Below, one piece after another: positions 2,776 through 64,000 of a stretch of DNA of 64,000 bases. A model generated the notes under the pieces. The model saw only the letters and a list, made by a program, of their open reading frames with translations, was not told the origin of the DNA and made no database searches. Every line of letters begins with the position of its first letter. Positions within the stretch are counted from its first letter, which is position 1. The DNA is taken from IMG/VR virus record IMGVR_UViG_3300021255_001778, positions 1-64,000 of that record. One strand, 5' to 3'. The DNA is from a virus. Lineage: Duplodnaviria; Caudoviricetes. The translations under genes and the position numbers were made by a program.

Positions 2776-5700
2776 GTGAAGATTATGCCAGGGGATGCTG
2801 GTAGCGCGATAATCAAAATTAAGACAAGTATTGACTGGGGAGACCTAAGCAGTCTTGAAAGTAAGATAGATGCTCTCGAAAAAACCACGCACACTATTAA
2901 GGTTAAAGTCGAGGCCGCCGAAGGACAAAAAGGGTTAGACAAGTATCTAAAGGACATTGATAAGCTTGGTCAGGACGCCTTTAGGAAAACGTCTGGAGGT
3001 GCAAAAAATGCATCTAAAGATATTCAAAACGTTGGTTCCGGCGCGAAAGATGTTGCGGACAATTTTAAGAAGGCCGGTAAAAGCGCTAATGTGCTGTCAG
3101 CCAGTAGTAAACAAATAAAAAAAGATTCGGACGAATACGTTACTGCGCTAAAAGCTGCTAATCACACTATTGATGGTATGAAAAAGAATCTTTCCAAGAT
3201 GCAAGATGCCGGATTTTATGATTCCGACTCTTATGATGACTGGAAAAATTATAATAAGCAGTTAGAAAAAATGATCGCTCTCAGAGATAAACTAGGCGAT
3301 CCGCATGGTAATCAAACAAATAATTCTTTTAACCGCAATTTTAAAGAGATAACCAGTTCTGCTGAAAGAAGCCTTCAGGAAATAACAAGGCGAGGCGATT
3401 TTTCAAGTGAGCTGACAAACGGCTATAAAACTGCGCAAAAAGAGGCTGCGAAGTTAGCACAGTTAGAGCAGAAAAATAGCGAAAAAGAGGTGGCTCGTCA
3501 GGCAGTTGCCAGAGAAAAAGAACAGGCGGCTCAGCAAAAGTCATGGGATAGTCGTATAGCGAATATCGAGAAGCAAGAAGCTGCTTGGAACAAGCAACTT
3601 GAAAGAGCTGGCAAACAGTATGAAGCCGAAATAAAAGAATACGATCGGCTGAATTCGGAAGTAGAGTCAGACTCAAAGGCTAGATGGAATGCCCAAAAAC
3701 AGACGATGGCTGAGGAGCAGCGCTTCTCAAGAGAAATTAGTGGATGGACTGCCGCTGCAAAAAGTAGTAAGACGGCAGACAGCTATCAAAAGTTAATAGA
3801 ATCCAGAGATGATATGGCTCGTCTTAACGATGAGCTTTCCAGGGGAAAAATTCTCTGGGGCGATTACGAGAAACAATATCAGGACGCATATAAATCTGGA
3901 AGAGAAGCCGAAAACACTATTATAAAGAATGGCAAAGCTCAGCTCTCGTTCGGCGATAAATTTAAGAATGCGTTCTCGGAGCTGAGTAGGTATATCACAC
4001 CTGCGATGGCATTACGAGAAGGTGTCCAGGCTGTTAAGCAGATGGTACAGGCTTCGATGGATATAGAAAGCGCGATGACGCGCATTCAGATTGTCACAGG
4101 GTCTACTGATACGCAGATGTCTCAGTTTTTCGAAACTGCCAGTAATCAAGCTCAGGAGCTTGGTAAAGGGATAACGGATGTTGCTGGATCGATAGAGGTT
4201 TTCAGCCGATTAGGTTTCCAGTTGCCTGATGCAACTAATTTATCAAAATTTGCAAATATAATGTCAAATGTTGGTGATGTTTCAGTCGATGAGGCAACAA
4301 CTGGCTTGACATCCATAATTAAAGGTTTCGATCTTGAAGCGTCTGATGCAGAACATGTTAGTGATGTTTTGATCGAAGTTGGACAAAAATATGCAATCTC
4401 AGCTTCTGAGTTGATGCAAGCATTTCAGCGTGGTGGTGCCGCATTACATGCTTCCGGGGCTTCTTTTGAGGAGTCGGCAGCGTTATTTGCCGCCACAAAC
4501 GCAGCGCTTCAAAATGCGAGCACAACAGGAACAATGTGGAAGACAGTTAGCGCTAGGTTAAGAGGCGCTACGAGCGAATTGTCAGAAATGGGTGAAGAAA
4601 CGGACGGGCTTGCTCAGGGGCTGTCTAAATATCGTGATGAACTCATCCAACTTTCTGGCGTAGACATCATGAAAAACGCCAGCGAGTACAAGAACCCTTA
4701 TCAGATTTTTACTGAGCTTGCTGAAAACTGGGATAAAATAAACGGTGATCCTGCGAAGGCGCGTGTTGCCGAAATACTTGGTGGAACACGTCAGCTCTCC
4801 GGTATCATGTCAACCATCACAAACATCAAAGATGCGATGGGAGCTTATAGCGATGCTATGGATTCAGCTGGTGTTGCTACAAAGGCAAACAACCTCTATA
4901 TGGAAACAACCGCCGCTCACGTCGAACAGCTTAAAGCGGCATTCCAGGAACTTTCTTACGATACATTCAATGGTAACGTGATGAAGTTCTTCGTAGATTT
5001 CGGCAAAGGATCTCTGAATGCAATTGATGGCATTATTGATCACGTTGGTACCCTTGGAACAGCTCTATTAGGAATCGCAAGTAGCAAGGTCATCCGTTCG
5101 TTTTTTAAGGACATGTCCGAAAGTAGTAATGATCTCGAATGGTCGTTAGGGCATACATTCAGCAACAAAGGAAACTTAGCTATGCTCGGAGTTGCGGCGG
5201 GTGTGTCTACGGCGATTGGTATTTACCAAGCTTATCAGCAAAAGAAACAGAACGCTCGTAATACTGCTGATGAGGATGCTGAATCATTCAGAGAATTAGA
5301 GAAGTCTATTTCTGATAGTATAGATCAGGCAAAAGAACTTAGAAGTCAATTAGACACAGGGACATTGTCTGACGAAGCTGCATATGAAGCTAAAAAGAAA
5401 CTTTTAGAGATACAAACTCAGCTCGCCGAATCATATCCTGCTATGGCTGAAGGACTCGACTTAGTCAATGGTCAAATGGAAAGACAGATCGAATTGTCTA
5501 ATCAGATTCTTCAAAAAGAAGCAACTGAGACAATTCAGAAAAATAGATCCGCATATGAAGAAGCTGAGAAATATATGACAAGTCCGGCAAAAGAACTTGT
5601 CGGAACACTTCAGCAGGGTCTTGATATACCTGATGAAATATTTTCAAAATACAAGGACTATCTATCTATTGAAGGAACTGACTTTGGAGTTGATTATTAT

Positions 5701-22705: not shown

Positions 22706-22708
22706 ATT

Positions 22709-22726
22709 TGCCATATAAATGTATTG
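22709..22726 (+). promoter_or_regulatory. 18-bp operator-like motif TGCCATATAAATGTATTG, copy 1
   Basis: Exact copy; last 3 bp overlap the -35 TTGACA. Confidence 0.8.
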
Positions 22727-22752
22727 ACAATACTACCCTTCTCGCTTATAAT
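22724..22752 (+). promoter_or_regulatory. SigmaA promoter of the XerD-like gene
   Basis: TTGACA-N17-TATAAT perfect consensus. Confidence 0.9.
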
Positions 22753-33596: not shown

Positions 33597-33605
33597 TGTT
33601 TCTCC

Positions 33606-33623
33606 TGCCATATAAATGTATTG
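33606..33623 (+). promoter_or_regulatory. 18-bp operator-like motif, copy 2 (abuts the dut RBS)
   Basis: Exact copy. Confidence 0.8.
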
Positions 33624-33698
33624 TTAGATTAAAGAATAGTTGCGTATACTTCTATTGATGATAATATTTCGCCATTACCAAATGCGAGACTGATATCA

Positions 33699-39345: not shown

Positions 39346-39355
39346 ACCTCCTATC

Positions 39356-39373
39356 TGCCATATAAATGTATTG
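39356..39373 (+). promoter_or_regulatory. 18-bp operator-like motif, copy 3 (in the thyX-like 5' UTR)
   Basis: Exact copy. Confidence 0.8.
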
Positions 39374-39403
39374 CTCGGTAAAAAAATATTTATCCCTATT
39401 AGC

Positions 39404-39447
39404 ATTGTACCAAATTGCTCTTCTTATGTCAATACATTTTTATGGCT
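39404..39447 (-). promoter_or_regulatory. SigmaA promoter (TTGACA-N17-TACAAT, extended TG) with operator copy 4 overlapping the -35
   Basis: -35 at 39427-39432, -10 at 39404-39409; motif variant AGCCATAAAAATGTATTG (2 mismatches) at 39430-39447. Confidence 0.8.
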
Positions 39448-39644
39448 TTTTTCGCATTAATATCTTCTATTATTATACCTTCAATTGTTTTGCACCACGT
39501 CCTATTTTGGAAGTTTTCGCCAGTAATACATTCATTACATGGGCTTCTGTTGCTTACGCATATAGAGTATTCACATTGCGGGCATAAACTTCTGTTTCTT
39601 CTGATACGCTTAAGCAGCGTCTTAATTGTTTCTATAATAATCAT
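39429..39644 (-). CDS. Small Cys-rich hypothetical protein
   Basis: CPQC...C...CNEC. Confidence 0.55.
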   Translation of the reverse strand: MIIIETIKTLLKRIRRNRSLCPQCEYSICVSNRSPCNECITGENFQNRTWCKTIEGIIIEDINAKKAIKMY

Positions 39645-46116: not shown

Positions 46117-46135
46117 TCATAAGCCGCCTCCCTTC

Positions 46136-46153
46136 TGCCATATAAATGTATTG
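46136..46153 (+). promoter_or_regulatory. 18-bp operator-like motif, copy 5 (upstream of the dnaB RBS)
   Basis: Exact copy. Confidence 0.8.
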
Positions 46154-46159
46154 TCAATA

Positions 46160-53395: not shown

Positions 53396-54103
53396 TTACT
53401 CTTGTTCGCGGGCACTCTTAGTCCATTTATACCAACCATAGATGCAGTTAATAGTCCAGAAAATGAACATGACGACCATCATCCAATTTCCAATCATGAG
53501 GAACATAATTACCGACGCCACATCAATAATCAACCAGTGCAGCCATTGCTCTCTGTACCCTAATACCATCAAGATCTGTGCAATAAACGCAGGGATCGTG
53601 CTGATAGCATCAAGGAACGGAAGCGGATCGTTCGTATGATGTAACACGAGAGTTAATACCGTTACTCCTGCGGCTAATCCACCCATCGTGATAGCCCAGC
53701 CGAGTGTATTCAGCTTCTTGGCTTTGACTTCTGCGGATTTGTTCTCTTTCTTCACTCTGTAGATTTTGTACCATGCGTATATTCCGTACGTTTGCGTGAT
53801 AAAGTAGAACAAATTCTCCCACGCCTCACCCCATAGGTGATTCGGGATTGCTACACCGAACGTGTATGTAAACATCTGGATGTACGCAAAGATATAAAAG
53901 CTGATTTTGCCCTGCGCACAGAATACTACGCTGATCACGCCAGCTATTGCGCATATAATCGAGATCAATCCGTCAGGTGTACCAGTCACATATCCGTAAA
54001 TAATTGCGGCTACCTGAAGCAACAGTCCTAATCCTAAGAAACACCAGTCAAATGGTCTTCTTCCGTTAATAAATTCAGCCTTTAGCTTTTCTGTAAATGT
54101 CAT
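53396..54103 (-). CDS. pnuC: Nicotinamide riboside transporter PnuC
   Basis: Multi-TM; P-F-L-D-A, AQILM, E-Q-W-x-x-W-x-x-x-D, G-W-Y-x-W. Confidence 0.9.
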   Translation of the reverse strand: MTFTEKLKAEFINGRRPFDWCFLGLGLLLQVAAIIYGYVTGTPDGLISIICAIAGVISVVFCAQGKISFYIFAYIQMFTYTFGVAIPNHLWGEAWENLFYFITQTYGIYAWYKIYRVKKENKSAEVKAKKLNTLGWAITMGGLAAGVTVLTLVLHHTNDPLPFLDAISTIPAFIAQILMVLGYREQWLHWLIIDVASVIMFLMIGNWMMVVMFIFWTINCIYGWYKWTKSAREQE

Positions 54104-55187
54104 CGATATATCCTTTCACGCTTAAATAGTTGTCGTAATATGTTCCATCAAGTATTTCATACTCATATCCGAAATAATCGTACAGTCGCATAAGTGTCTC
54201 GAAAAACTCGCATCTGATATCATAATCTCCGTCCGGCATGTATCTCTCTCCGTCATCAACTATCCCGTTATCATGAGGAGCAAGCAAAAAGATCTTGTCC
54301 CATTTGGTAGTCTTTCTATATTTTTCAGCCATCTCGAAAAGGAAATCATAATCTGAATCATTTATGGAAAAGTCTTCCCGTTGTGCGTAATAATATGCGT
54401 ACATGAGTGTCACCATATTGTCAGTATCAGATATAAATATTCCAGGATTCTGCGGATTAGTGATTAGTTCTTCGTTATATTTATGCTGTTCATAAATGTT
54501 ATATATGAAGTCTTTCACCGTAAATTCTGGATCAGTTTTCAGACTGCAATTATCTCTCCCTTTTTCATATGAATATGGCAGACCGTAATACTTTCCTATA
54601 TCTTTAACTAACGTCGTCTTTCCTTCTGATGCTGTTCCGGCAATCAAAATATTGTGACTAAAATATGCTCTGAACGGAGTCGTGATAATGTCCCAGTATT
54701 TTAAAGGATTTTCTCTGCATTGCGTACCAGAAACAGGGTTATATGTTCTATCTCGAATCTCTACACGACATGAGAAGTCACAATATTTTTCTAAGCACTC
54801 CTTATAAAAAGGCTCTCCTACATAAAACGTAACTACATCGTCTTGCTTTATGTTTGTTTTTGTCTGCAATGCGTGTGTCCATACCTTCCAATTATCTGGA
54901 CACATGGACTCGTCTAATCCAAGTTCTGTGTCGTTGATATAGGTCACTTTCACTAACTCGTCTTCGAGATAATTTTTCACGATTCTATACTTTTTCATTA
55001 GAGATAATCCTTCTGGCTGTCCTCTTGGATCGCCGTCATATCCGCATACGACCACATGCGTAAGATCGTTCTTCTTTTTTGACTCCATTATTAAATCAAG
55101 ATGGCCTCTATGCAGTGGGCAATATCCGCCAAAACATATTCCAATATTCATAACTATTCTTTCCTCACTATTCCGATTAAACGACAT
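54075..55187 (-). CDS. nadR: NadR-like NMN adenylyltransferase / ribosylnicotinamide kinase
   Basis: FGGYCPLHRGH (HxGH), VSGT-x-x-R, GTASEGKTTL Walker A, DTD. Confidence 0.9.
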   Translation of the reverse strand: MSFNRNSEERIVMNIGICFGGYCPLHRGHLDLIMESKKKNDLTHVVVCGYDGDPRGQPEGLSLMKKYRIVKNYLEDELVKVTYINDTELGLDESMCPDNWKVWTHALQTKTNIKQDDVVTFYVGEPFYKECLEKYCDFSCRVEIRDRTYNPVSGTQCRENPLKYWDIITTPFRAYFSHNILIAGTASEGKTTLVKDIGKYYGLPYSYEKGRDNCSLKTDPEFTVKDFIYNIYEQHKYNEELITNPQNPGIFISDTDNMVTLMYAYYYAQREDFSINDSDYDFLFEMAEKYRKTTKWDKIFLLAPHDNGIVDDGERYMPDGDYDIRCEFFETLMRLYDYFGYEYEILDGTYYDNYLSVKGYIDDIYRKAKG

Positions 55188-55734
55188 CGATTAAGCACGA
55201 CTTCATTACTTCGAGCGCCGCCTTGTGCTTTTCTGGCGTTGTTCCGGCGCAACAGTCCTTGATAACTCTGATAGTTGACTTTGGAAAAATACTTCTTGCA
55301 ACCAACGCGTTACTTATGACACATATATCTGTACAAAGTCCGACGAAATCGAATTCTATCTCTTCATCCTTCGTACCGGTGTACTCAGTCTGGTCAAAGT
55401 AACTTAAAAGATCGATTCTTAAGAACAGTTCTGTAGCGGCAAATGACTCTTTCTCTATGACAAAAGAGCTAGATACGCATTTTGCTATAGAATTACATAT
55501 TCTTTCTCCGTCTGTACCTTTCGCGCAGTGTATAGGTATATACCTACTTTCAACTAGCTTCTGATAAGCACTCTCAGTATGACTATCTTTTGTTGCCCAG
55601 ATAAAGTCATATTCGTCTACATATCTATCTAAGTATTGGCATATGTTATTTACTGCTGCTACAGCCTCATCCGTACCTAATACTCCGTCTATAAAATCAT
55701 TCTGTGCATCGACAATAATCAGATGCTTTTTCAT
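55177..55734 (-). CDS. pncA: Nicotinamidase/isochorismatase
   Basis: VDAQNDF, D-x-H, HC, EK, GLCTDICV. Confidence 0.85.
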   Translation of the reverse strand: MKKHLIIVDAQNDFIDGVLGTDEAVAAVNNICQYLDRYVDEYDFIWATKDSHTESAYQKLVESRYIPIHCAKGTDGERICNSIAKCVSSSFVIEKESFAATELFLRIDLLSYFDQTEYTGTKDEEIEFDFVGLCTDICVISNALVARSIFPKSTIRVIKDCCAGTTPEKHKAALEVMKSCLIDVV

Positions 55735-56127: not shown

Positions 56128-56266
56128 GTCTTCTCTCCGTATTCTGCCATCAATTCATCAAGCACACCGTCTATAATTGCGATACAATTTCTCACGCCCT
56201 GGTTATATGCTTTATACTCAGATAATTCCATTAATAGTAGTCGCTCCATACGGTTTTTGATCTCTA

Positions 56267-56929
56267 TCAAGGTTCCCATGCCATATCTCCTGTGCGCTCA
56301 AAATCTCTACATTTTATCTTTGTCATGATTGGCTTACCACTTTTGTCGAACAACATCGTTTTAGGTCTTGCAACAACTCCCTCCATCTCGTAATCTCTAA
56401 GTCTAGATTTTGGATGCTCTCTTACATATTCGACAGCCTTCCGCAAGCTTCCCTGGCCAACAATCGGCACTACGTCGATATCAAACGTCTTCGCTATATC
56501 TTCTACATTCTCACGATCAAGCCAATAACCATTCACAACAACGTCAAACAGTATGAAATTCGTGTCTCCGTACAAATCTCCGTGTTTTTGGATCTTTCCA
56601 CCGTATCCTTCGCCGTATAAAACTGTGATTTTATCACCAAAAATGCGCTCAAAAACCTCTTCTCGAGCCTCTCCGCCGAACATTTCGTCCAATTTTTGTT
56701 GTAAATCTTGCGGAATTTGTGTTTTTTCTGTGCGTCCCATGAAGCTCACTCGGTATCCATCCCATAAAATTCTTATATTGGTTCCGTCGACCTTCTCACT
56801 CCAAACCCATTCGGCGTTACAGAGATAATCAATCTCAGGAGTGGATGCTTCGCCCTCAATCAACTTGTTCTTATTCGGCCCGTCCGTATACCTCTTAAAG
56901 ATATTCGGTATTTTTACATATTCGTTCAT
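56267..56929 (-). CDS. RNA ligase (Rnl2-like nucleotidyltransferase)
   Basis: EKVDGTN (motif I KxDG), LYGE, FILFDV, EGVV, KIK. Confidence 0.85.
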   Translation of the reverse strand: MNEYVKIPNIFKRYTDGPNKNKLIEGEASTPEIDYLCNAEWVWSEKVDGTNIRILWDGYRVSFMGRTEKTQIPQDLQQKLDEMFGGEAREEVFERIFGDKITVLYGEGYGGKIQKHGDLYGDTNFILFDVVVNGYWLDRENVEDIAKTFDIDVVPIVGQGSLRKAVEYVREHPKSRLRDYEMEGVVARPKTMLFDKSGKPIMTKIKCRDFERTGDMAWEP

Positions 56930-57084
56930 GTCATTACCCTCGTACCAATCAGTAATGCAATCATTAGCATTGCAAAAATTAATATGTATAGATCAATCTC
57001 GTCCTTGCCATTAGTAAACACACAAAGTTCAATCACCGTTATAATTGCCAGCCAGAACAATAAAGCCCAAAACATAACCACCAT
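56926..57084 (-). CDS. 52-aa two-TM membrane protein
   Basis: Own translation MVVMFWALLFWLAII...; stop overlaps the ligase ATG. Confidence 0.6.
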   Translation of the reverse strand: MVVMFWALLFWLAIITVIELCVFTNGKDEIDLYILIFAMLMIALLIGTRVMT

Positions 57085-57105
57085 CCTTCCTTTTCACATT
57101 GATTA

Positions 57106-57251
57106 AGGCACGGGCGAGGATTTGAACCTCGCATGGAAAACCGCCCGTCCTTCATGGCTTAGTTGTTATGCACTTATTTGATGGCATAGTTCCTGGTTTC
57201 ATGAAAGCATTTCCTTACGGCGTAAGCGTCTACCCATTTCGCCACCGCGCC
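57106..57251 (-). ncRNA. 146-nt tRNA-like RNA (acceptor stem, D arm, T arm; mini anticodon hairpin; 80-nt variable arm)
   Basis: GGCGCGG/CCGUGCC acceptor; U8, Leu-type D loop AAAUGGGUAGA; GCGAGG-UUCAAAU-CCUCGC T arm; no encoded CCA. Confidence 0.8.
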
Positions 57252-57255
57252 ATAT

Positions 57256-57273
57256 TGCCATATAAATGTATTG
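57256..57273 (+). promoter_or_regulatory. 18-bp operator-like motif, copy 6 (4 nt upstream of the tRNA-like RNA)
   Basis: Exact copy. Confidence 0.8.
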
Positions 57274-57283
57274 ATTGATTTTT

Positions 57284-57305
57284 CAAAAGCCTGCCTAAGC
57301 AGGCT
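57284..57305 (-). terminator. Terminator of the mazF / dead-recombinase transcript
   Basis: AGCCTGC-TTAG-GCAGGCT then TTT on the - strand. Confidence 0.7.
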
Positions 57306-57310
57306 ATGAT

Positions 57311-58315
57311 TCATATTATTGTAAGCTTCCAGTTCTCGTAGTCCTTCTTGTAGTCATTCACTCTCCGCAAGAATGTGTTCCTATCTTGAACTGTTATACT
57401 CGGGTCATCTTCTTTGTAGTTCAAGTGTCTGTCATGATATTCACCCTGTGCTTTTATCCTCAGAAACATGTTTGCAAGTCCTTCGAAGTTCTTATCTGTC
57501 AGATATCCGGCAATTTCAAGCTCTCTAAGTCTGTAAAACGCACCAGACAACCATACTCTGTAGTAACTCAGGTTCAGATCCGTCTTGCCTTCGGCTATTG
57601 CAGCCTTTATCTTTCTGGATATATTCGATCTAAATACTGAAAGGTCTGGATCGCTAGAACCTCTTACTCCTCTAAAAATGCAATCTCCTGGGACTCTATC
57701 TCTCGTTATCCATCCCTTGTTTATGTACTTAGAGTTGATGTATAAGAAGCTCTTAGCTTCTACGCACTGCCTTACTGTATTAATTCCTTCCTTATATAAA
57801 ATGCCTTGCCAAGTCTTCGCCTTTATAATCATTCGATCAAAATCAATATCATTGCTTGTAAGATATATAACATCTTCTTCTCTACACCCACCATATGCCA
57901 TCCAGAAGAAACATTTTATCGGATCAAATGTCGTTCCATCTTCTTCAATAAACACGTCATCGAGGAATTTCTTCAAATGTAACGGACTCTTCACCGTGCG
58001 AGTTCTCATTTGTTCTACAGCCGGACTCGTGACGTTCAATCCATCAAGACAAGTCCCGTCTACATTTTTTGAAGCACACCACTTAATATAAGAACGAATA
58101 GTTACAATGTCGTTCTCACTACTTCTTGCTCTTGTACCAGTAGTAGCGTTATTGAGTACAGCCTGTATCTTCTCTGCACTCATTGTACAAACATCTTTTC
58201 CTTCTTCCTTCTCTATCTTCTGGAAAAGATTGAATGTTTTTCTTCTTGCGGCTCGCGCAGCCTCAGTGTTAGTGGTTTCGACCAAAAAGCGTTCCTTTAA
58301 TTCCGCGTTATACAT
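57311..58315 (-). CDS. Tyrosine-recombinase-fold protein lacking box II catalytic residues; candidate MrpR/YopR-like repressor
   Basis: Box I MAYGGCREEDV retained; H-x-x-R replaced by LSYYRVWLSG. Confidence 0.6.
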   Translation of the reverse strand: MYNAELKERFLVETTNTEAARAARRKTFNLFQKIEKEEGKDVCTMSAEKIQAVLNNATTGTRARSSENDIVTIRSYIKWCASKNVDGTCLDGLNVTSPAVEQMRTRTVKSPLHLKKFLDDVFIEEDGTTFDPIKCFFWMAYGGCREEDVIYLTSNDIDFDRMIIKAKTWQGILYKEGINTVRQCVEAKSFLYINSKYINKGWITRDRVPGDCIFRGVRGSSDPDLSVFRSNISRKIKAAIAEGKTDLNLSYYRVWLSGAFYRLRELEIAGYLTDKNFEGLANMFLRIKAQGEYHDRHLNYKEDDPSITVQDRNTFLRRVNDYKKDYENWKLTII

Positions 58316-58346
58316 TGTTTACCCTCCTAAGATTATATGTATAACG

Positions 58347-58772
58347 CTACACTAATGTAGCGTTTAAGTAGGAAGCTTTTTGCCAAACCATCAGCAAGGT
58401 TTCCTGATCGATATACGATATAGCCGACGTTGCAAGCAGATTAGCCACCGCTATCTTAGACATATATTCGTCTGGCATCTTCGTGAGATAATTTCCTATA
58501 CGCTCTTTGGACATTCTTTCAGGATTTTCACATAATACCATGCTATCCTTTTTTAGTCCTGTGTCTTTTGATGATACAAAAACATGAGTAGGAAGATTTT
58601 TCTTTTTCACAGAAGATGTTAGTGGCAGAGCGATTATGTTAGGGCTATATTTATTGCCAACATTGTTCTGAAAAACCAGCCCAGGACGCCATCCACTCTG
58701 TTCGCTGCCATGCCCGTCGAATCGCATCAAATAGACCTCACCGATCCTGATACTTCTAGCCGCGCGAGTCAT
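58347..58772 (-). CDS. mazF: PemK/MazF-family endoribonuclease
   Basis: GEVY...GSEQSGWRP...QNNVGN...PLTS...LPTHV...DSMVL, closely following EndoA/MazF motifs. Confidence 0.9.
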   Translation of the reverse strand: MTRAARSIRIGEVYLMRFDGHGSEQSGWRPGLVFQNNVGNKYSPNIIALPLTSSVKKKNLPTHVFVSSKDTGLKKDSMVLCENPERMSKERIGNYLTKMPDEYMSKIAVANLLATSAISYIDQETLLMVWQKASYLNATLV

Positions 58773-58800
58773 GAGAGCACCTCTTTTCTCTGCTATATGT

Positions 58801-58844
58801 ATAATAACACGTCAGAGAACAGATGTCAATACACTTTTATGGCA
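58801..58844 (-). promoter_or_regulatory. SigmaA promoter of mazF (TTGACA-N17-TATTAT, extended TG) with operator copy 7
   Basis: -35 at 58824-58829, -10 at 58801-58806; motif variant TGCCATAAAAGTGTATTG (2 mismatches) at 58827-58844. Confidence 0.8.
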
Positions 58845-58846
58845 AA

Positions 58847-59182
58847 TTATTTCTTATCTACAATAAGATAAAACCTGTTTTCACCATTTTTAGTACTTTC
58901 GTCCCTGCATATTATCATAGCAGAATTTGTGATACCCCCCTCACCCTCTTCAAACTCGATTCTGATGACATTGGTGAAAGATATATACGTTTCCTTGTAC
59001 TTTGACGTAAAATAAATTGTATCAGGACATGGAAAAGCGGCTACATTCGCAAACCTCATAGAAGCACTGCAATTTCCAACCCCAGTAAACTTCTCAACTT
59101 GATCGCAGAGATTGAAAATAAACTGATTGTATTTATTTTCCTTGCAAAACCTCTCGAACTCAAGAACTGTCAACTTTATCAT
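58847..59182 (-). CDS. Hypothetical protein downstream of the structured leader
   Basis: Start set to ATG 59182 after GGAGGT. Confidence 0.7.
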   Translation of the reverse strand: MIKLTVLEFERFCKENKYNQFIFNLCDQVEKFTGVGNCSASMRFANVAAFPCPDTIYFTSKYKETYISFTNVIRIEFEEGEGGITNSAMIICRDESTKNGENRFYLIVDKK

Positions 59183-59350
59183 GTCATACCTCCAATTGCA
59201 TTTTGATTGGCGGTATGGTACACTAATCAAGAGCGAATTAGTGGGAAAATGGTTCGCTCTGGCTGTATATCAGCCGCCAATCTGTACCTTACGTCTGCCA
59301 AACCTTGGTACGGATTGTTACTTTTTGCCGGAGACCCTTGCGGGTCTCCT
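59183..59350 (-). ncRNA. Structured ~168-nt leader RNA with an H-type pseudoknot
   Basis: 8-bp GCAA hairpin (59330-59349), 5-bp stem, 9-bp closing helix, 8-bp stem + 6-bp pseudoknot. Confidence 0.65.
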
Positions 59351-59356
59351 TTTAAA

Positions 59357-59385
59357 ATGATAGCACATCAGCTTTTAAAAAGCAA
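59357..59385 (-). promoter_or_regulatory. SigmaA promoter TTGCTT-N17-TATCAT (extended TG)
   Basis: Predicted +1 (~59350) coincides with the first hairpin base. Confidence 0.7.
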
Positions 59386-59398
59386 ACACGTGTTCGGG

Positions 59399-60350
59399 TC
59401 ACTCAATAGCTTCTCTTAGCATACCGATCGCCTCATTTATCATAGACACCGCATCTTCAAGATAGTCAACGCACTCTTCCATCTTGGAATACCTGTCAGA
59501 ACTCTCGAGATTTTCCGGCATATTTCCAAGAGCATCACTCTCTTCGTCATATACATCACTTACAATATCATAGGCGTTTTCTAATTCTGATATCGCAATG
59601 TTAAGGCGATTTCTTCTCTTGTTATTCATGATATCCACACTCCATCAAACCGCATTTCCATTCTGATCGCAGGTGGGTTTTCTTTTGATGCGGATATCGT
59701 TATATCATTTGCTCCACGCAAAAATGTGTACACTGGATCGTTTTCTTTAAACTCACACATGTCGAACTCGACACCTATGATAATTTCTTTTGTGTCTATA
59801 TCAACGTCTACATCGATACCATATGAATTATCGCATCTGCCTGACAACAATTCATCTATCCCGTCACATATTCTATGGATATTATCCATACGTCCTGGAG
59901 AAAACCTCCATCCATCTTCGATTTCCTTTGTTGCCTGATTAATAACAATTTCTGCCACATCATAACATTTTATCAATCTTCCACCACCTTTCTCGAAGTC
60001 CCGTAGTATGTTACATTGAACGAGATATCACCATTTCTGACAGGAACTATCTCAGCCACATCTGCGTGCTTTAGTAACTCGCATAACACTGTCGGATTTT
60101 TGATGTGTATTTCCTTGCCAGACATTAGAATATCTGCACTTCCGATAAATGGTTCATCAACTCTTTCTTTGATGTCATCACAATCAATTATGCGTGAAAA
60201 TACACTTAGAGCAGTTCTGACCTCATACATTCTGTCTTTATCCTGTATAAATGTTCCCACCATGTCTTTCCGAATGTCTTCTTTTAGGTCTTGCAAGACT
60301 TCTTCGAAATCACTGTCCATGTAGTCACCGTCCTTTCTTGTCCATATCAT
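59399..60350 (-). CDS. Three acidic hypothetical proteins (59399-59638, 59626-59976, 59973-60350)
   Basis: Coupled track ORFs. Confidence 0.65.
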
Positions 60351-60543
60351 TCAGAATGAGATCTATAGCCCTATTTATTAAGGAATTAACACTCTCTCCG
60401 TTGGATGCTGCCACCTCTTTTAATACGTCTTTCTTTCCTTTGCTTGTCAGTACGAGAATCCGGTCGTATTTCGTTTCGTACGATTTATCGTTCCATTTTT
60501 TATTTGCCCTTTTCTTTGCTTCGCTCATAGACATAATGATCAT
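60325..60543 (-). CDS. Arc/RHH-type small DNA-binding protein
   Basis: SEAKKRANKKW...YDRI...KG-x-K...A...GESVN-x-x-I-x-x-AI. Confidence 0.75.
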   Translation of the reverse strand: MIIMSMSEAKKRANKKWNDKSYETKYDRILVLTSKGKKDVLKEVAASNGESVNSLINRAIDLILNDMDKKGR

Positions 60544-60604
60544 CCCGCCTACATTCTTATTATTCTATAAAAAATATGTAGAAGCAACCTCTTGTGCAGT
60601 CTTT

Positions 60605-61750
60605 TTACAGAAAACCACTATATTCTTTTAGCCTAAATGCCGTTTCTGCAATCACTTTAGCCGCTTCTCCAACCTCTTCCTCTGTATTATACTTGGAAAA
60701 TGATATTCTGATCGAGTCTCTGGCCTGGTCATCCGTCAAACCAATTGCCCTCAGTACTCTACTTGGCTCCTGTTCGTTACTTCTACATGCAGAACCAGCT
60801 GAAACGCACACATCCATTGCGCTAAGCATCAACAGCATAGTTTCCGCATCAATACCGTCGAATCTTACGTTCAAAACCTTGCCAAAATTGCTACTCGATT
60901 CGGCATTGTCGTGGATTATGTCTGACATACCGTATTTTCCCATGTGGTACTTCAGATCTTTCCACATTTTCTTCTTTAACACAGAAATCTCGGCACCAAT
61001 TTGTGTCTCGATGCCTGTTATCACCTGACAAGCCTTGCCAAACCCGACAATTCCTGCCACATTCTCAGTTCCGCCACGAATCCCGTACTCATGATCCTTG
61101 CCACCGATCCTCCCCATCAGTTCTGGCCGGACATCATTTTTATCTCGTATATACAAAGCCCCTACGCCCTTCGGACCGTGTATTTTGTGAGAACTTATCG
61201 TTGCAAAGTCAAGACACAGCTCATTTACATCGATTTTTATGCACCCAGCTGCTTGTGTGCAGTCACTGTGAAACAAAATGTTCTTTTCCTTGCAAAATTC
61301 CCCGATTTTTTCGACCGGATTTACCGTTCCGATCTCATTATTGGCAAACATAACCGAAACCATCTCCGTCATATCGGTTACATTCTTTTCGAAGCTTTCC
61401 CAGATGATTTTGCCATTCTTGTCGACATCTATGTAGCCTGTAAGCGCGTTTAAACCTGCCATATTCATTATCGAGTCGTGTTCTATATTGGAAACGACGT
61501 TAAACGTATATGATGATAGCGCCATATTGTTAGATTCCGTACCGCCAGAAGTAAAAATTATCTGTTCTGGACTATCCGCTCTTAAAAATGTTGCCACACG
61601 CTCTCTTGCTAATGTAATTGCCTGCTTTGCGTCCTGTCCAAGCTTGTGTGGAGACCCAGGATTCCCATATCGCGTTGTTAGGTATGGCATCATTTCATCA
61701 AGAACTTCCGGCGCAATTTTGGTAGTCGACGCATTGTCAAGATATATCAT
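60605..61750 (-). CDS. iscS: Cysteine desulfurase (IscS/NifS family)
   Basis: IYLDNASTT, YGNP-x-S-x-H, FTSGGTESNN, H-x-D-x-x-Q, SSHK-x-x-GPKG, SAGSAC. Confidence 0.95.
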   Translation of the reverse strand: MIYLDNASTTKIAPEVLDEMMPYLTTRYGNPGSPHKLGQDAKQAITLARERVATFLRADSPEQIIFTSGGTESNNMALSSYTFNVVSNIEHDSIMNMAGLNALTGYIDVDKNGKIIWESFEKNVTDMTEMVSVMFANNEIGTVNPVEKIGEFCKEKNILFHSDCTQAAGCIKIDVNELCLDFATISSHKIHGPKGVGALYIRDKNDVRPELMGRIGGKDHEYGIRGGTENVAGIVGFGKACQVITGIETQIGAEISVLKKKMWKDLKYHMGKYGMSDIIHDNAESSSNFGKVLNVRFDGIDAETMLLMLSAMDVCVSAGSACRSNEQEPSRVLRAIGLTDDQARDSIRISFSKYNTEEEVGEAAKVIAETAFRLKEYSGFL

Positions 61751-61945: not shown

Positions 61946-63051
61946 TTAAACCCCCATTCCATACAGCATGTCGATTTCCTCAGTTTTGTATTCTTCGTAA
62001 TTCTGGACGATAAATTCCGTTATCATATCCGATGTATAACCCCACTCTCCATCATCCTCATACATACGATATACTTCAACGCCATCGACTACATTTGCAT
62101 CAGTGATTGTCATAATTTCACCGGCGAAATCTACCATTTCTTCACGCACGAACCATGAATAATCGCCTCCGTAATGTAATTCTGGATCAATACGAACCCT
62201 GTCTCCTACTTTATACATAATTACACCTCGTATAACATATCTATGTCTTCTATTTCGTAATGTCCTTCTTTAGCTAATCCAATGAAACATTCTGTAGACC
62301 ATACCCAATTACCATCATCCTCTTCTATATGATACCTCTCGTCTTTCGTTAATCGTATGATCTGACTGATCGTAACCTCTCGTCCGGCGTACTCTAACAT
62401 TTGTGGAACTACGTAAAGCCCACCAATAGGAAGATATGAGTCACCAAGCAACTTATCGCTAACTATCACTCTATCCCCAACACCGTATGTATATTCCATG
62501 TTATTCACCCGTATAAAACACTAATTTCCTCGACATTATATTCACGCTCAATATCTTCAAACATATCTTCCCCCCAACTATATCTTTGTCCATCCTCTAC
62601 TATCAGATAATATCGATTTGCCGTAATATCAAAAATAGTCACCTCTTGCCCCATAAGACTCGCAAGTGTTTTAAGCATTTTTACGTCTGATATCTTTTTC
62701 GCAGCGATTTCTGCCTGTCGTTCACCTATAACAACTTTATCTCCAACATTATATTTCATTGATAACTACCTACTTATCTCATTAGAGATGTCACCCATAT
62801 AGCAACGAAATGTCCTCGGCCTCTATCTGATATTCCGGAACTTCTAATCTTTCTAACATCGTAGGATGCCAGAAAAATCTATATGGATCTTCGACTAACA
62901 ATACACAATCGGAATCAGTTTCAAGAACCGTCATTACCTCACAAATAAATTTATTCATCCCAGTTACATAAAAATCAATATCCGGTCCGACCTCATTCAA
63001 ATCTTGACGAACCATTACAATATCTCCTGGCTTAAAATCCATATTTATCAC
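61946..63051 (-). repeat. Four tandem paralogous KOW/SH3-like small proteins (61946-62218, 62221-62508, 62505-62759, 62791-63051)
   Basis: Shared (Y/F)-x-(V/P)-G-D-x-V start, ED...W, and C-terminal E-(D/E)-I-x-x-L-Y. Confidence 0.8.
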
Positions 63052-63769: not shown

Positions 63770-64000
63770 CTATGTGAATAACAGCTGTATGTCCTCTGTT
63801 TCGTATTCAATGTTCGACGAATGCCTAAAATCAAACATAAATATCGACCACGAAAAGCCTGTGTATTCGCCATCATCTGTTACTAAAAGATGTCGTGTGC
63901 TTTTAAGATCGTCATCTATACAAAATTCAATTCCGTACTCACAAATTGTATCAAGTACACATTTATCATACCCACCAATCCATTCTGTTATTGCGCCTTC
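63770..64000 (-). CDS. 3' part of a fifth member of the E-D-I-x-x-L-(Y/F) family (runs off the window)
   Basis: Own translation ends ...GFSWSIFMFDFRHSSNIEYETEDIQLLFT*. Confidence 0.7.
   Translation of the reverse strand, partial: EGAITEWIGGYDKCVLDTICEYGIEFCIDDDLKSTRHLLVTDDGEYTGFSWSIFMFDFRHSSNIEYETEDIQLLFT

Follow-up and report, generated by a model that had tools for sequence, protein, structure and literature searches.

In the SPbeta-family phage phi3T, the host endoribonuclease MazF is freed by a protein of the sro operon and is reported to degrade phage messages with the exception of those of the sro operon itself and thereby to favour lysogeny (PMC10769878; bioRxiv 10.1101/2025.11.27.690993). 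The present study concerns a locus of a Caudoviricetes virus in which a phage-borne mazF gene directly precedes the gene of a putative integrase-fold repressor of 334 aa; it lies in a window formed by the first 64 kb of the 83.8-kb IMG/VR virus record IMGVR_UViG_3300021255_001778, which is ~70% complete. To our knowledge, integrase-fold repressors and the link between MazF and lysogeny are known so far only from Bacillus phages of the SPbeta family, where MazF is host-borne. A literature search of incomplete coverage returned no description of a phage-borne MazF coupled to an SroF-type repressor.

On a slight balance of probability, the locus is a lysogeny-control module of a temperate phage of gut Clostridia, in which an SPbeta-type repressor operon has incorporated a MazF of the UACAUA type. 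Homologous loci are found on contigs of metagenome-assembled genomes (MAGs) of Ruminococcus, Oscillospiraceae and other Clostridia, some of these contigs being 256 and 320 kb long, which points to a temperate lifestyle. The new element is the pattern of cut sites around the operon, which suggests that the phage's own MazF controls dormancy. In the proposed mechanism, the repressor would recognise a 20-bp operator at TTGACA promoters, including that of its own operon. MazF would cut the numerous adjoining phage messages that bear U^ACAUA, would spare its own two open reading frames (ORFs), nearly free of the motif, and would process the bicistronic RNA at a single conserved site just 5' of the ribosome-binding site (RBS) of the repressor gene. 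A phage RNase acting in cis may in this way bias the decision towards repression or stabilise it, as phi3T does by freeing the host MazF. Lastly, an SOS-box promoter followed by a structured leader would drive p110, a small protein and possible repressor antagonist induced by damage.

The likeness to SPbeta and phi3T covers several features. The repressor is homologous by Pfam, profile and fold to that of the sro operon (sroA-F; SroF = YopR = MrpR); it is likewise the last gene of its operon, with a small neighbour gene behind an SOS box. Many copies of one long operator lie over phage promoters (SPBRE there, a 20-bp repeat here), and the phage is large, with a DNA polymerase III alpha-like polymerase and homologues of DnaB and DnaG. 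There are also differences. The hosts are gut Clostridia (Ruminococcus and Oscillospiraceae MAGs) instead of Bacillus, the repressor is only ~12-16% identical to SroF, YopR and MrpR in structural alignment, the operon has two genes and not six, and the operator sequence differs. No arbitrium genes were seen here, aimR/aimP not having been systematically searched for. The small neighbour is predicted to be PH/YojF-like, without a match to Sar/YopT, and a tyrosine integrase takes the place of SprA.

The mazF-repressor operon

The operon and its control elements comprise the following features (window positions).

58826-58845, minus strand: operator O1, a 20-bp repeat abutting the -35 element of the mazF promoter, one of 12 copies
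58801-58829, minus strand: promoter of the mazF-repressor operon, TTGACA-17-TATTAT with an upstream TG, 11/12 matches
58347-58772, minus strand: mazF, 141 aa, PemK/MazF endoribonuclease (PF02452, E = 3e-22)
58343-58364, minus strand: hairpin overlapping the mazF stop codon, read from the sequence
58336-58341, minus strand: UACAUA between mazF and the repressor gene, 26 nt ahead of the start codon of the latter
57311-58315, minus strand: MrpR/SroF-like integrase-fold repressor, 334 aa (PF22822 MrpR_N_CB)
57284-57305, minus strand: terminator-like hairpin with U-run after the repressor gene, from the sequence
57255-57274, plus strand: operator O2, inverted relative to O1, closing the operon before the cargo slot, one of 12 copies

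The operon is part of a longer block carried entirely by the minus strand, all elements being co-directional. In order of transcription, a NifS-like gene is followed by an RHH (ribbon-helix-helix)-like gene of 72 aa, ORFs of 125, 116 and 79 aa, a 216-bp spacer and a 111-aa ORF, then by mazF, the 334-aa gene, a hairpin with a U-run, a tRNA-shaped RNA, a 52-aa protein and an RNA ligase, after which come genes of nicotinamide adenine dinucleotide (NAD) salvage. The original prediction had proposed such a co-directional block of parts, and every element that it listed is present on that strand, the leader that it predicted to be pseudoknotted being present as a conserved structured RNA; its gene list is correct as to these parts and skips the three ORFs of 125, 116 and 79 aa between the RHH gene and the leader. 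For comparison, 101 related loci (numbered with the prefix L) were gathered from Logan, ENA and JGI contigs, IMG/VR and GTDB genomes. Neither the repressor protein nor 5 kb of the DNA found a match among cultured phages, and a single-protein pattern scan of IMG/VR was likewise negative.

By Pfam, profile and predicted fold, the 334-aa protein is a member of the MrpR/SroF (YopR) family of SPbeta repressors, and as such a putative repressor. It matches PF22822 MrpR_N_CB with E = 3.4e-14 and 53.7 bits against a cut-off of 27. When a family profile of 17 homologues was compared with the PDB, four matches only were significant: SroF of phi3T (9rd5, 3e-7), two YopR sequences (8bjv, 4.5e-7, over positions 1-266, and a second at 5.7e-7) and MrpR (8a0a, 5e-6); the best true recombinase, XerA, reached an E-value of only 0.23. 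The AlphaFold2 model (mean predicted local distance difference test, pLDDT, 88) gave the same picture in Foldseek, where ranks 1-7 in the PDB are all SroF, YopR or MrpR (6.6e-8 to 6e-5), and XerD (4.7e-4), lambda Int and Cre rank below them. The catalytic positions of tyrosine recombinases appear to fall on Y141/G142, Y252 and W255/L256, so that no R-H-R would be present, the mapping being indirect (YopR hidden Markov model alignment and Table 3 of PMC10516654); the nearby R145 is not conserved within the family. This agrees with the recombinase-derived repressor that had been predicted, here a relative of MrpR/SroF with its own set of operators. The family is large, with 835 clusters at 50% identity (E <= 1e-30), and its members carry an invariant acidic/aromatic C-terminal motif, DY..DYENWK.

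A separate, intact tyrosine recombinase of 269 aa (genome 64157-64966, minus strand; L092:358-1167), in which R..HxxR..H..Y is present, is kept at 77-85% identity in L001-L006 and is likely the true integrase of the phage. An hhalign comparison of the repressor family with this integrase gave no usable alignment.

The phage MazF has as its nearest solved structure the EndoA/MazF of B. subtilis (4mdx, E = 2.5e-20), to which it is ~40-45% identical as judged by eye from the alignment. The blocks GSEQ.G.RP and (L/I)T are kept in the alignment to EndoA, and the catalytic residues R29 and T52 are invariant across 12 aligned family members. The same 12 members share a C-terminal extension of ~25 aa (residues ~115-141; 58347-58430, minus strand) which the canonical MazF of 116 aa is without; it is probably helical and could be autoinhibitory or partner-binding. 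The subfamily comprises at least 2200 clusters at 90% identity.

Linkage of the two genes is tight. In 93/101 loci, from viromes and Clostridia MAGs alike, mazF lies directly upstream of the repressor gene, and its distance from the repressor start is 351-461 bp in 85/92 loci and in 8/9 evaluable MAG loci. The spacer between the two genes measures 31 bp. Across loci, MazF is 54-88% identical and the repressor 28-75%. On the repressor tree, the loci that have lost mazF are spread over at least four distinct lineages. The predicted co-expression of MazF with the repressor is thus borne out as a shared operon, as far as gene arrangement can tell, and as a pair that is co-conserved; this linkage supports the central proposal, namely that the phage brings a MazF of its own which is coupled to the repressor.

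The operon consists of these two genes under a promoter of their own, an architecture that is kept in relatives. The promoter is the best sigma-70-like match within 56200-60700, and strong promoters are found at the equivalent place upstream of mazF in other clades. At the far end, the terminator hairpin is kept in L001, L002, L005, L006, L093 and L094 (a simple terminator scan missed it), and O2, also retained in relatives, sits directly after it.

O1 and O2 belong to a 20-bp repeat with the consensus nTGCCATAnAAnTGTATTGn, present in 12 copies in the 83.8-kb genome when counted at <=3 mismatches, against a chance expectation estimated at roughly 0.005. Five copies run into a TTGACA -35 element with a 17-bp spacer and a good -10; the promoters fused to operators in this way (TTGACA-17-TAnnAT) include those of mazF, of a late-gene block and of a block adjoining the replication genes. 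Inverted copies occur 50-75 bp downstream, in leaders just ahead of the RBS. The SPbeta-phage repressor of this type has been reported to be monomeric. In other clades a different motif, specific to the clade, recurs at both ends of the operon, once at the promoter of mazF and once immediately behind the repressor gene, as would be expected of operators co-evolving with their repressor and in parallel to SPBRE and MrpR (PMC10516654).

The remaining copies were located at 22708-22727, 33605-33624, 39355-39374, 39429-39448 and 46135-46154 of the window and at 68487, 68542, 76118, 76948 and 77001 of the genome. Inverted pairs bracket TTGACA promoters, with an O1-type copy at the -35 element and an O2-type copy in the leader before the RBS, an arrangement which suggests that the repressor bridges or loops across the promoter.

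UACAUA sites and the possible role of MazF

The MazF of Bacillota is reported to cut strictly at U^ACAUA (bioRxiv 10.64898/2026.08.06.743204), and the distribution of this motif was analysed in 44 non-redundant loci. In 31 of them a UACAUA is found in the spacer 20-29 nt before the repressor start codon, where 1.2 would be expected (P = 7e-33). The spacer site always keeps this distance and usually comes right after the hairpin that overlaps the mazF stop codon; equivalent hairpins are present in relatives, with different apical sequences. The site recurs in 7/8 MAG loci, and it accompanies MazF, being present in 38/52 loci with mazF vs 1/5 without it (P = 0.03). No match for a conserved single cut site between mazF and a repressor gene was found in the literature search.

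Within the two ORFs the opposite is observed. TACATA is the most depleted of 3054 hexamers in mazF and the repressor gene, with 5 occurrences vs 43.2 expected (P = 2.5e-13). TACAT itself is not avoided there; it is the final A that is rare, following 5/75 (7%) of the TACAT in the ORFs vs 456/1004 (45%) in the flanks (Fisher P = 9e-13). A test on 5-mers had found UACAU not depleted in the operon (107 vs 100) and no 5-mer absent, and was superseded by the 6-mer analysis because of the conserved spacer TACATA and the published 6-nt motif. In the flanking phage genes called as co-directional, sense-strand UACAUA reaches 1.51x its maximal-order Markov expectation, the antisense strand 0.98. The original prediction had the phage's MazF impose dormancy or lysogeny, or a defence against superinfection; the distribution of the motif is the one expected of a MazF that leaves the repressor operon intact and attacks the remaining phage transcripts.

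A second TACATA (58796-58801, minus strand) stands directly after the -10 element of the mazF promoter in the clade of the window and in L014; whether it is part of the transcript depends on the start site.

Several points weigh against this interpretation. That the phage MazF cuts U^ACAUA like its Bacillota relatives is inferred from the ~40-45% identity mentioned above and from the motif pattern itself; the strandedness of the flanks is assumed from gene calls; and the 44 loci share ancestry. When codons were shuffled synonymously within genes, the repressor gene had 2 sites vs a mean of 5.9 (4% of shuffles <= observed) and mazF 3 vs 3.2. The shuffle explains much of the depletion, which means that the avoidance is largely a matter of amino-acid and codon composition. 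Moreover, 13/44 loci are without the spacer site, and the repressor gene of the window has one internal UACAUA, at 57722. In B. subtilis reporters, UACAUA in a 5' untranslated region lowers expression (bioRxiv 10.64898/2026.08.06.743204), and cleavage of the spacer might therefore reduce repressor synthesis and not protect it. Finally, neither Pfam nor PHROG identified a MazE-type antitoxin adjoining mazF, and the upstream p110 has no match to an antitoxin family.

Set beside the control of host MazEF in phi3T, where AimX, YosL and phi3T_93 act on B. subtilis MazF, the locus likewise links a Bacillota MazF of the UACAUA type to the repressor operon, which appears protected, with the other phage messages exposed. 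Unlike in phi3T, mazF is phage-borne and forms part of the repressor operon, an antitoxin resembling MazE, AimX or YosL was not found, and the spacer that separates the two genes has one conserved cut site.

The same site admits a bolder, rather doubtful extension, in which the repressor would neutralise MazF and the spacer U^ACAUA would make repressor synthesis depend on free MazF, yielding a bistable switch of RNase and repressor. If true, such a switch would be self-contained, widespread in phages of gut Clostridia and independent of arbitrium or of host toxin-antitoxin systems.

Also rather unlikely is a toxin-antitoxin pair with mazF as its first gene and the integrase-fold repressor in a second role as antitoxin, serving prophage addiction, superinfection exclusion or abortive infection, with the spacer site as feedback on antitoxin synthesis. 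The shared promoter and the 31-bp spacer would suit such a pair, as would the missing adjacent MazE-type gene, the repressor being the only obviously co-expressed protein in a lysogen; its autoregulation through O1 would be antitoxin-like, and the conserved extension of MazF and the invariant DY..DYENWK of the repressor would also fit. As in type II mazEF/pemIK systems, the toxin has the PemK fold with the catalytic Arg and Thr and is predicted to be co-transcribed with a DNA-binding autoregulator. Unlike in these systems, there is no upstream MazE (RHH or AbrB), the downstream partner is a recombinase-fold repressor of 334 aa, the toxin bears the ~25-aa C-terminal extension and the context is that of phage lysogeny control. 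Furthermore, MazF was lost at least four times while the repressor stayed, and the repressors of these lineages retain all family-invariant residues, DY..DYENWK included; a segment lost along with MazF was looked for and none was found, so that no MazF-dependent part of the repressor is visible. In addition, a MazF specific for 6 nt is reportedly only mildly toxic at low level (bioRxiv 10.64898/2026.08.06.743204), so that an antitoxin may be unneeded.

It is improbable that MazF is instead a lytic-phase RNase for host takeover or anti-defence, degrading host messages with UACAUA and sharing the promoter incidentally. The PHROGs category of the protein ('moron, auxiliary metabolic gene and host takeover') fits this idea, and the operator at the promoter means that the promoter may be most active when repressor is low. 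However, the enrichment of sense-strand UACAUA in adjoining phage genes would make a lytic-phase RNase self-harming, and the conserved linkage to the repressor gene and the cut site at its RBS speak against incidental sharing.

The upstream control region

Upstream of the operon, the lysogeny-control reading involves a second promoter region (59183-59398) with the SOS box and the leader, and the gene that it would drive.

60325-60543, minus strand: Arc/RHH-like protein, 72 aa (weak Pfam RHH_7/Arc, PHROG Arc-like)
59399-59638, minus strand: p79, acidic helical protein, 79 aa (phrog_4068)
59383-59396, minus strand: LexA (Cheo)-box-like motif CGAAC-N4-GTTTG overlapping the -35 element of the promoter of the 111-aa gene
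59183-59352, minus strand: structured 5' leader of the 111-aa gene, ~170 nt, three helices (alignment and RNAalifold)
58847-59182, minus strand: p110, protein of 111 aa, positionally conserved directly upstream of the repressor gene, with or without mazF between them

Within the 64-kb window, the box CGAAC-N4-GTTYG is matched exactly at one place only. The 6 relatives that were aligned show it unchanged, and its promoter has an extended -10. Among the related loci, 13 have a strict box at 1000-1360 bp upstream from the start of the repressor gene, vs 4 elsewhere, and a relaxed form was counted 26 times in that 500-bp bin vs ~2 per bin; such boxes cluster upstream of p110 in the clade of the window and in several other clades.

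The leader, which is conserved, folds into 43 pairs, 6 of them with compensatory changes in the alignment; the last helix extends as far as the region of the RBS of the 111-aa gene. With no family match in Rfam, the leader may be a novel cis-regulatory RNA that acts on an induction gene.

A protein related to p110 (~95-140 aa) precedes the pair everywhere, MazF-less loci included, and the family aligns across clades. The AlphaFold2 model (pLDDT 89.5) is rich in beta structure and resembles PH/YojF folds, Z not exceeding 5.7. Pfam and PHROG gave no match; the sequence profile against the PDB, Foldseek and a VIA-wide search gave weak PH/YojF-like similarity only, and the ESM Atlas returned unnamed clusters only. 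In SPbeta phages the antirepressor of SroF, Sar, is a small SOS-controlled neighbour (bioRxiv 10.1101/2025.11.27.690993), and p110 is therefore a candidate analogue, by position and promoter a candidate SOS-controlled partner or antirepressor. Two results count against such a role: the relaxed SOS box is found upstream of p110 in only 27/97 loci, and no Sar/YopT chain was among the Foldseek and VIA matches of the monomer model of p110, a monomer being unable to show an intertwined dimer.

Further upstream, p79 is present in nearly all loci, 1.2-3.9 kb from the repressor gene. The assignment of the RHH-like protein is weak (Pfam RHH_7/Arc E ~3e-3; PHROG Arc-like 2e-6), and tblastn found its gene in one relative only, L006, at another position, so that it is not conserved with the module.

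In the MazF-less lineage of L010, a CI-like repressor gene (helix-turn-helix and Peptidase_S24; 4508-5272, minus strand) is divergent and upstream of p110-like and MrpR-like genes, which hints at module replacement or dual control.

The cargo slot and neighbouring genes

Behind O2, three further elements follow the operon.

57106-57251, minus strand: tRNA-shaped RNA, 146 nt (fold)
56926-57084, minus strand: protein of 52 aa with two hydrophobic segments (ORF)
56267-56929, minus strand: stand-alone RNA-ligase nucleotidyltransferase domain, 220 aa (PF09414, E = 1e-18)

In the tRNA-shaped RNA the acceptor stem is 7 bp long, the D loop is of the Leu type and the T loop reads GGUUCAAAUCC; the D and T arms are present and a canonical anticodon arm is absent. 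It received no default ARAGORN call and no Rfam tRNA match even at E = 10; the best Rfam matches, mascRNA (E = 1.9) and tmRNA (E = 6.7), are at chance level. With introns allowed, ARAGORN proposed an intron-containing tRNA-Ile(AAU), a reading rejected because the anticodon stem is poor, with 2 mismatches in 5 bp. The RNA has no paralogue within the genome, and its only other copy is in the same phage (L095). In phages with a 95% identical repressor, the DNA is identical through the end of O2, after which a protein gene replaces the tRNA-like RNA; elsewhere the slot holds a normal tRNA-Ile(UAU) (L002-L004) or the start of a tRNA-Gln-like sequence (L005). Homologues of the 52-aa protein (47-58% identical) occur in L001-L004 only.

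The ligase contains KVDGTN (KxDG motif) and ends at residue 220, without the C-terminal domain of Rnl2; its TIGR02307 score is 30.6 bits against a cut-off of 197, over model positions 1-220 of 326. By tblastn the gene is found in 6/92 loci (~6%), the relatives being L002-L004, L006 and L012 only. MazF leaves 2',3'-cyclic-phosphate and 5'-OH ends. A ligase of the Rnl2 type, which is ATP-dependent, requires 3'-OH and 5'-phosphate ends, and so cannot seal MazF products without end-healing. No kinase/phosphatase domain of the polynucleotide kinase (PNK) type was found in the 83.8-kb record, itself ~70% complete. Given the low conservation, the swaps in the slot and the missing PNK-type domain, the tRNA-like RNA, the membrane protein and the ligase are, judging from gene content, hypervariable accessory cargo behind O2, outside the mechanism, and not partners of MazF.

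The original prediction had assigned these elements a part in one integrated system, in which MazF damage would be undone on induction by the ligase and by the RNA as a ribosome-rescue molecule or decoy. Synteny keeps only part of it: the mazF-repressor pair is co-conserved; the ligase, the tRNA-like RNA and the RHH gene are not. The integrated system is thus very improbable and largely refuted by this lack of co-conservation, for all that its genes adjoin in this phage and L095 and that the operator ahead of the RNA means the cargo may be de-repressed on induction, since the ligase is confined to few loci and chemically mismatched to MazF ends, and the RNA, which is replaced by a protein gene in phages with a 95% identical repressor and lacks UACAUA, is found in this phage only and has nothing to support a rescue or decoy role.

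The adjacency of a tRNA or tRNA-like gene to an RNA-ligase gene, in this phage and in L002-L004, recalls tRNA repair of the T4 type (Rnl1/Rnl2 with Pnkp). Unlike there, the C-terminal domain of Rnl2 is missing from the ligase, a Pnkp was not found among the genes of the record, the RNA is without a normal anticodon arm and the pair is not conserved with MazF.

Other genes of the record were noted in passing. Odd tRNAs were called by ARAGORN at 65948-66829 and 81922-81994 of the genome (minus strand), namely a 95-nt 'Gly', an 84-nt 'Trp' and one whose anticodon has only 2 nt, with a normal tRNA-Gln next to them. The NAD-salvage set after the ligase (53396-55734, minus strand) consists of a PnuC-like transporter, a NadR-like AAA_28 protein and an isochorismatase/nicotinamidase; the trio is also present in L002 and L003, and L004 stops after the isochorismatase gene. 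The NifS-like cysteine desulfurase (Aminotran_5; 60605-61750, minus strand), an unusual yet stable phage gene, lies 2-8 kb upstream of the repressor in most of the ~100 loci. Four or five paralogous small proteins (84-95 aa) stand in a row (61946-63051 and 63770-64000, minus strand), each with a similar tail, (D/E)I(D/S)(M/L)LY(G/E). A reverse transcriptase (RVT_1, 468 aa; genome ~70081-71487, minus strand; L092:6282-7688) is found beside a ThiF/E1-like gene and others.

Integrase-fold repressors form a large family outside Bacillus, in gut and rumen viromes and Clostridia MAGs, and about 9 in 10 of the examined loci bring their own MazF within the repressor operon. This suggests that the link between MazF and lysogeny is old and general, and not a peculiarity of Bacillus. 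The cut-site pattern provides a testable model of how a sequence-specific RNase may steer a phage decision, for which the at least four lineages that have lost MazF are natural controls.

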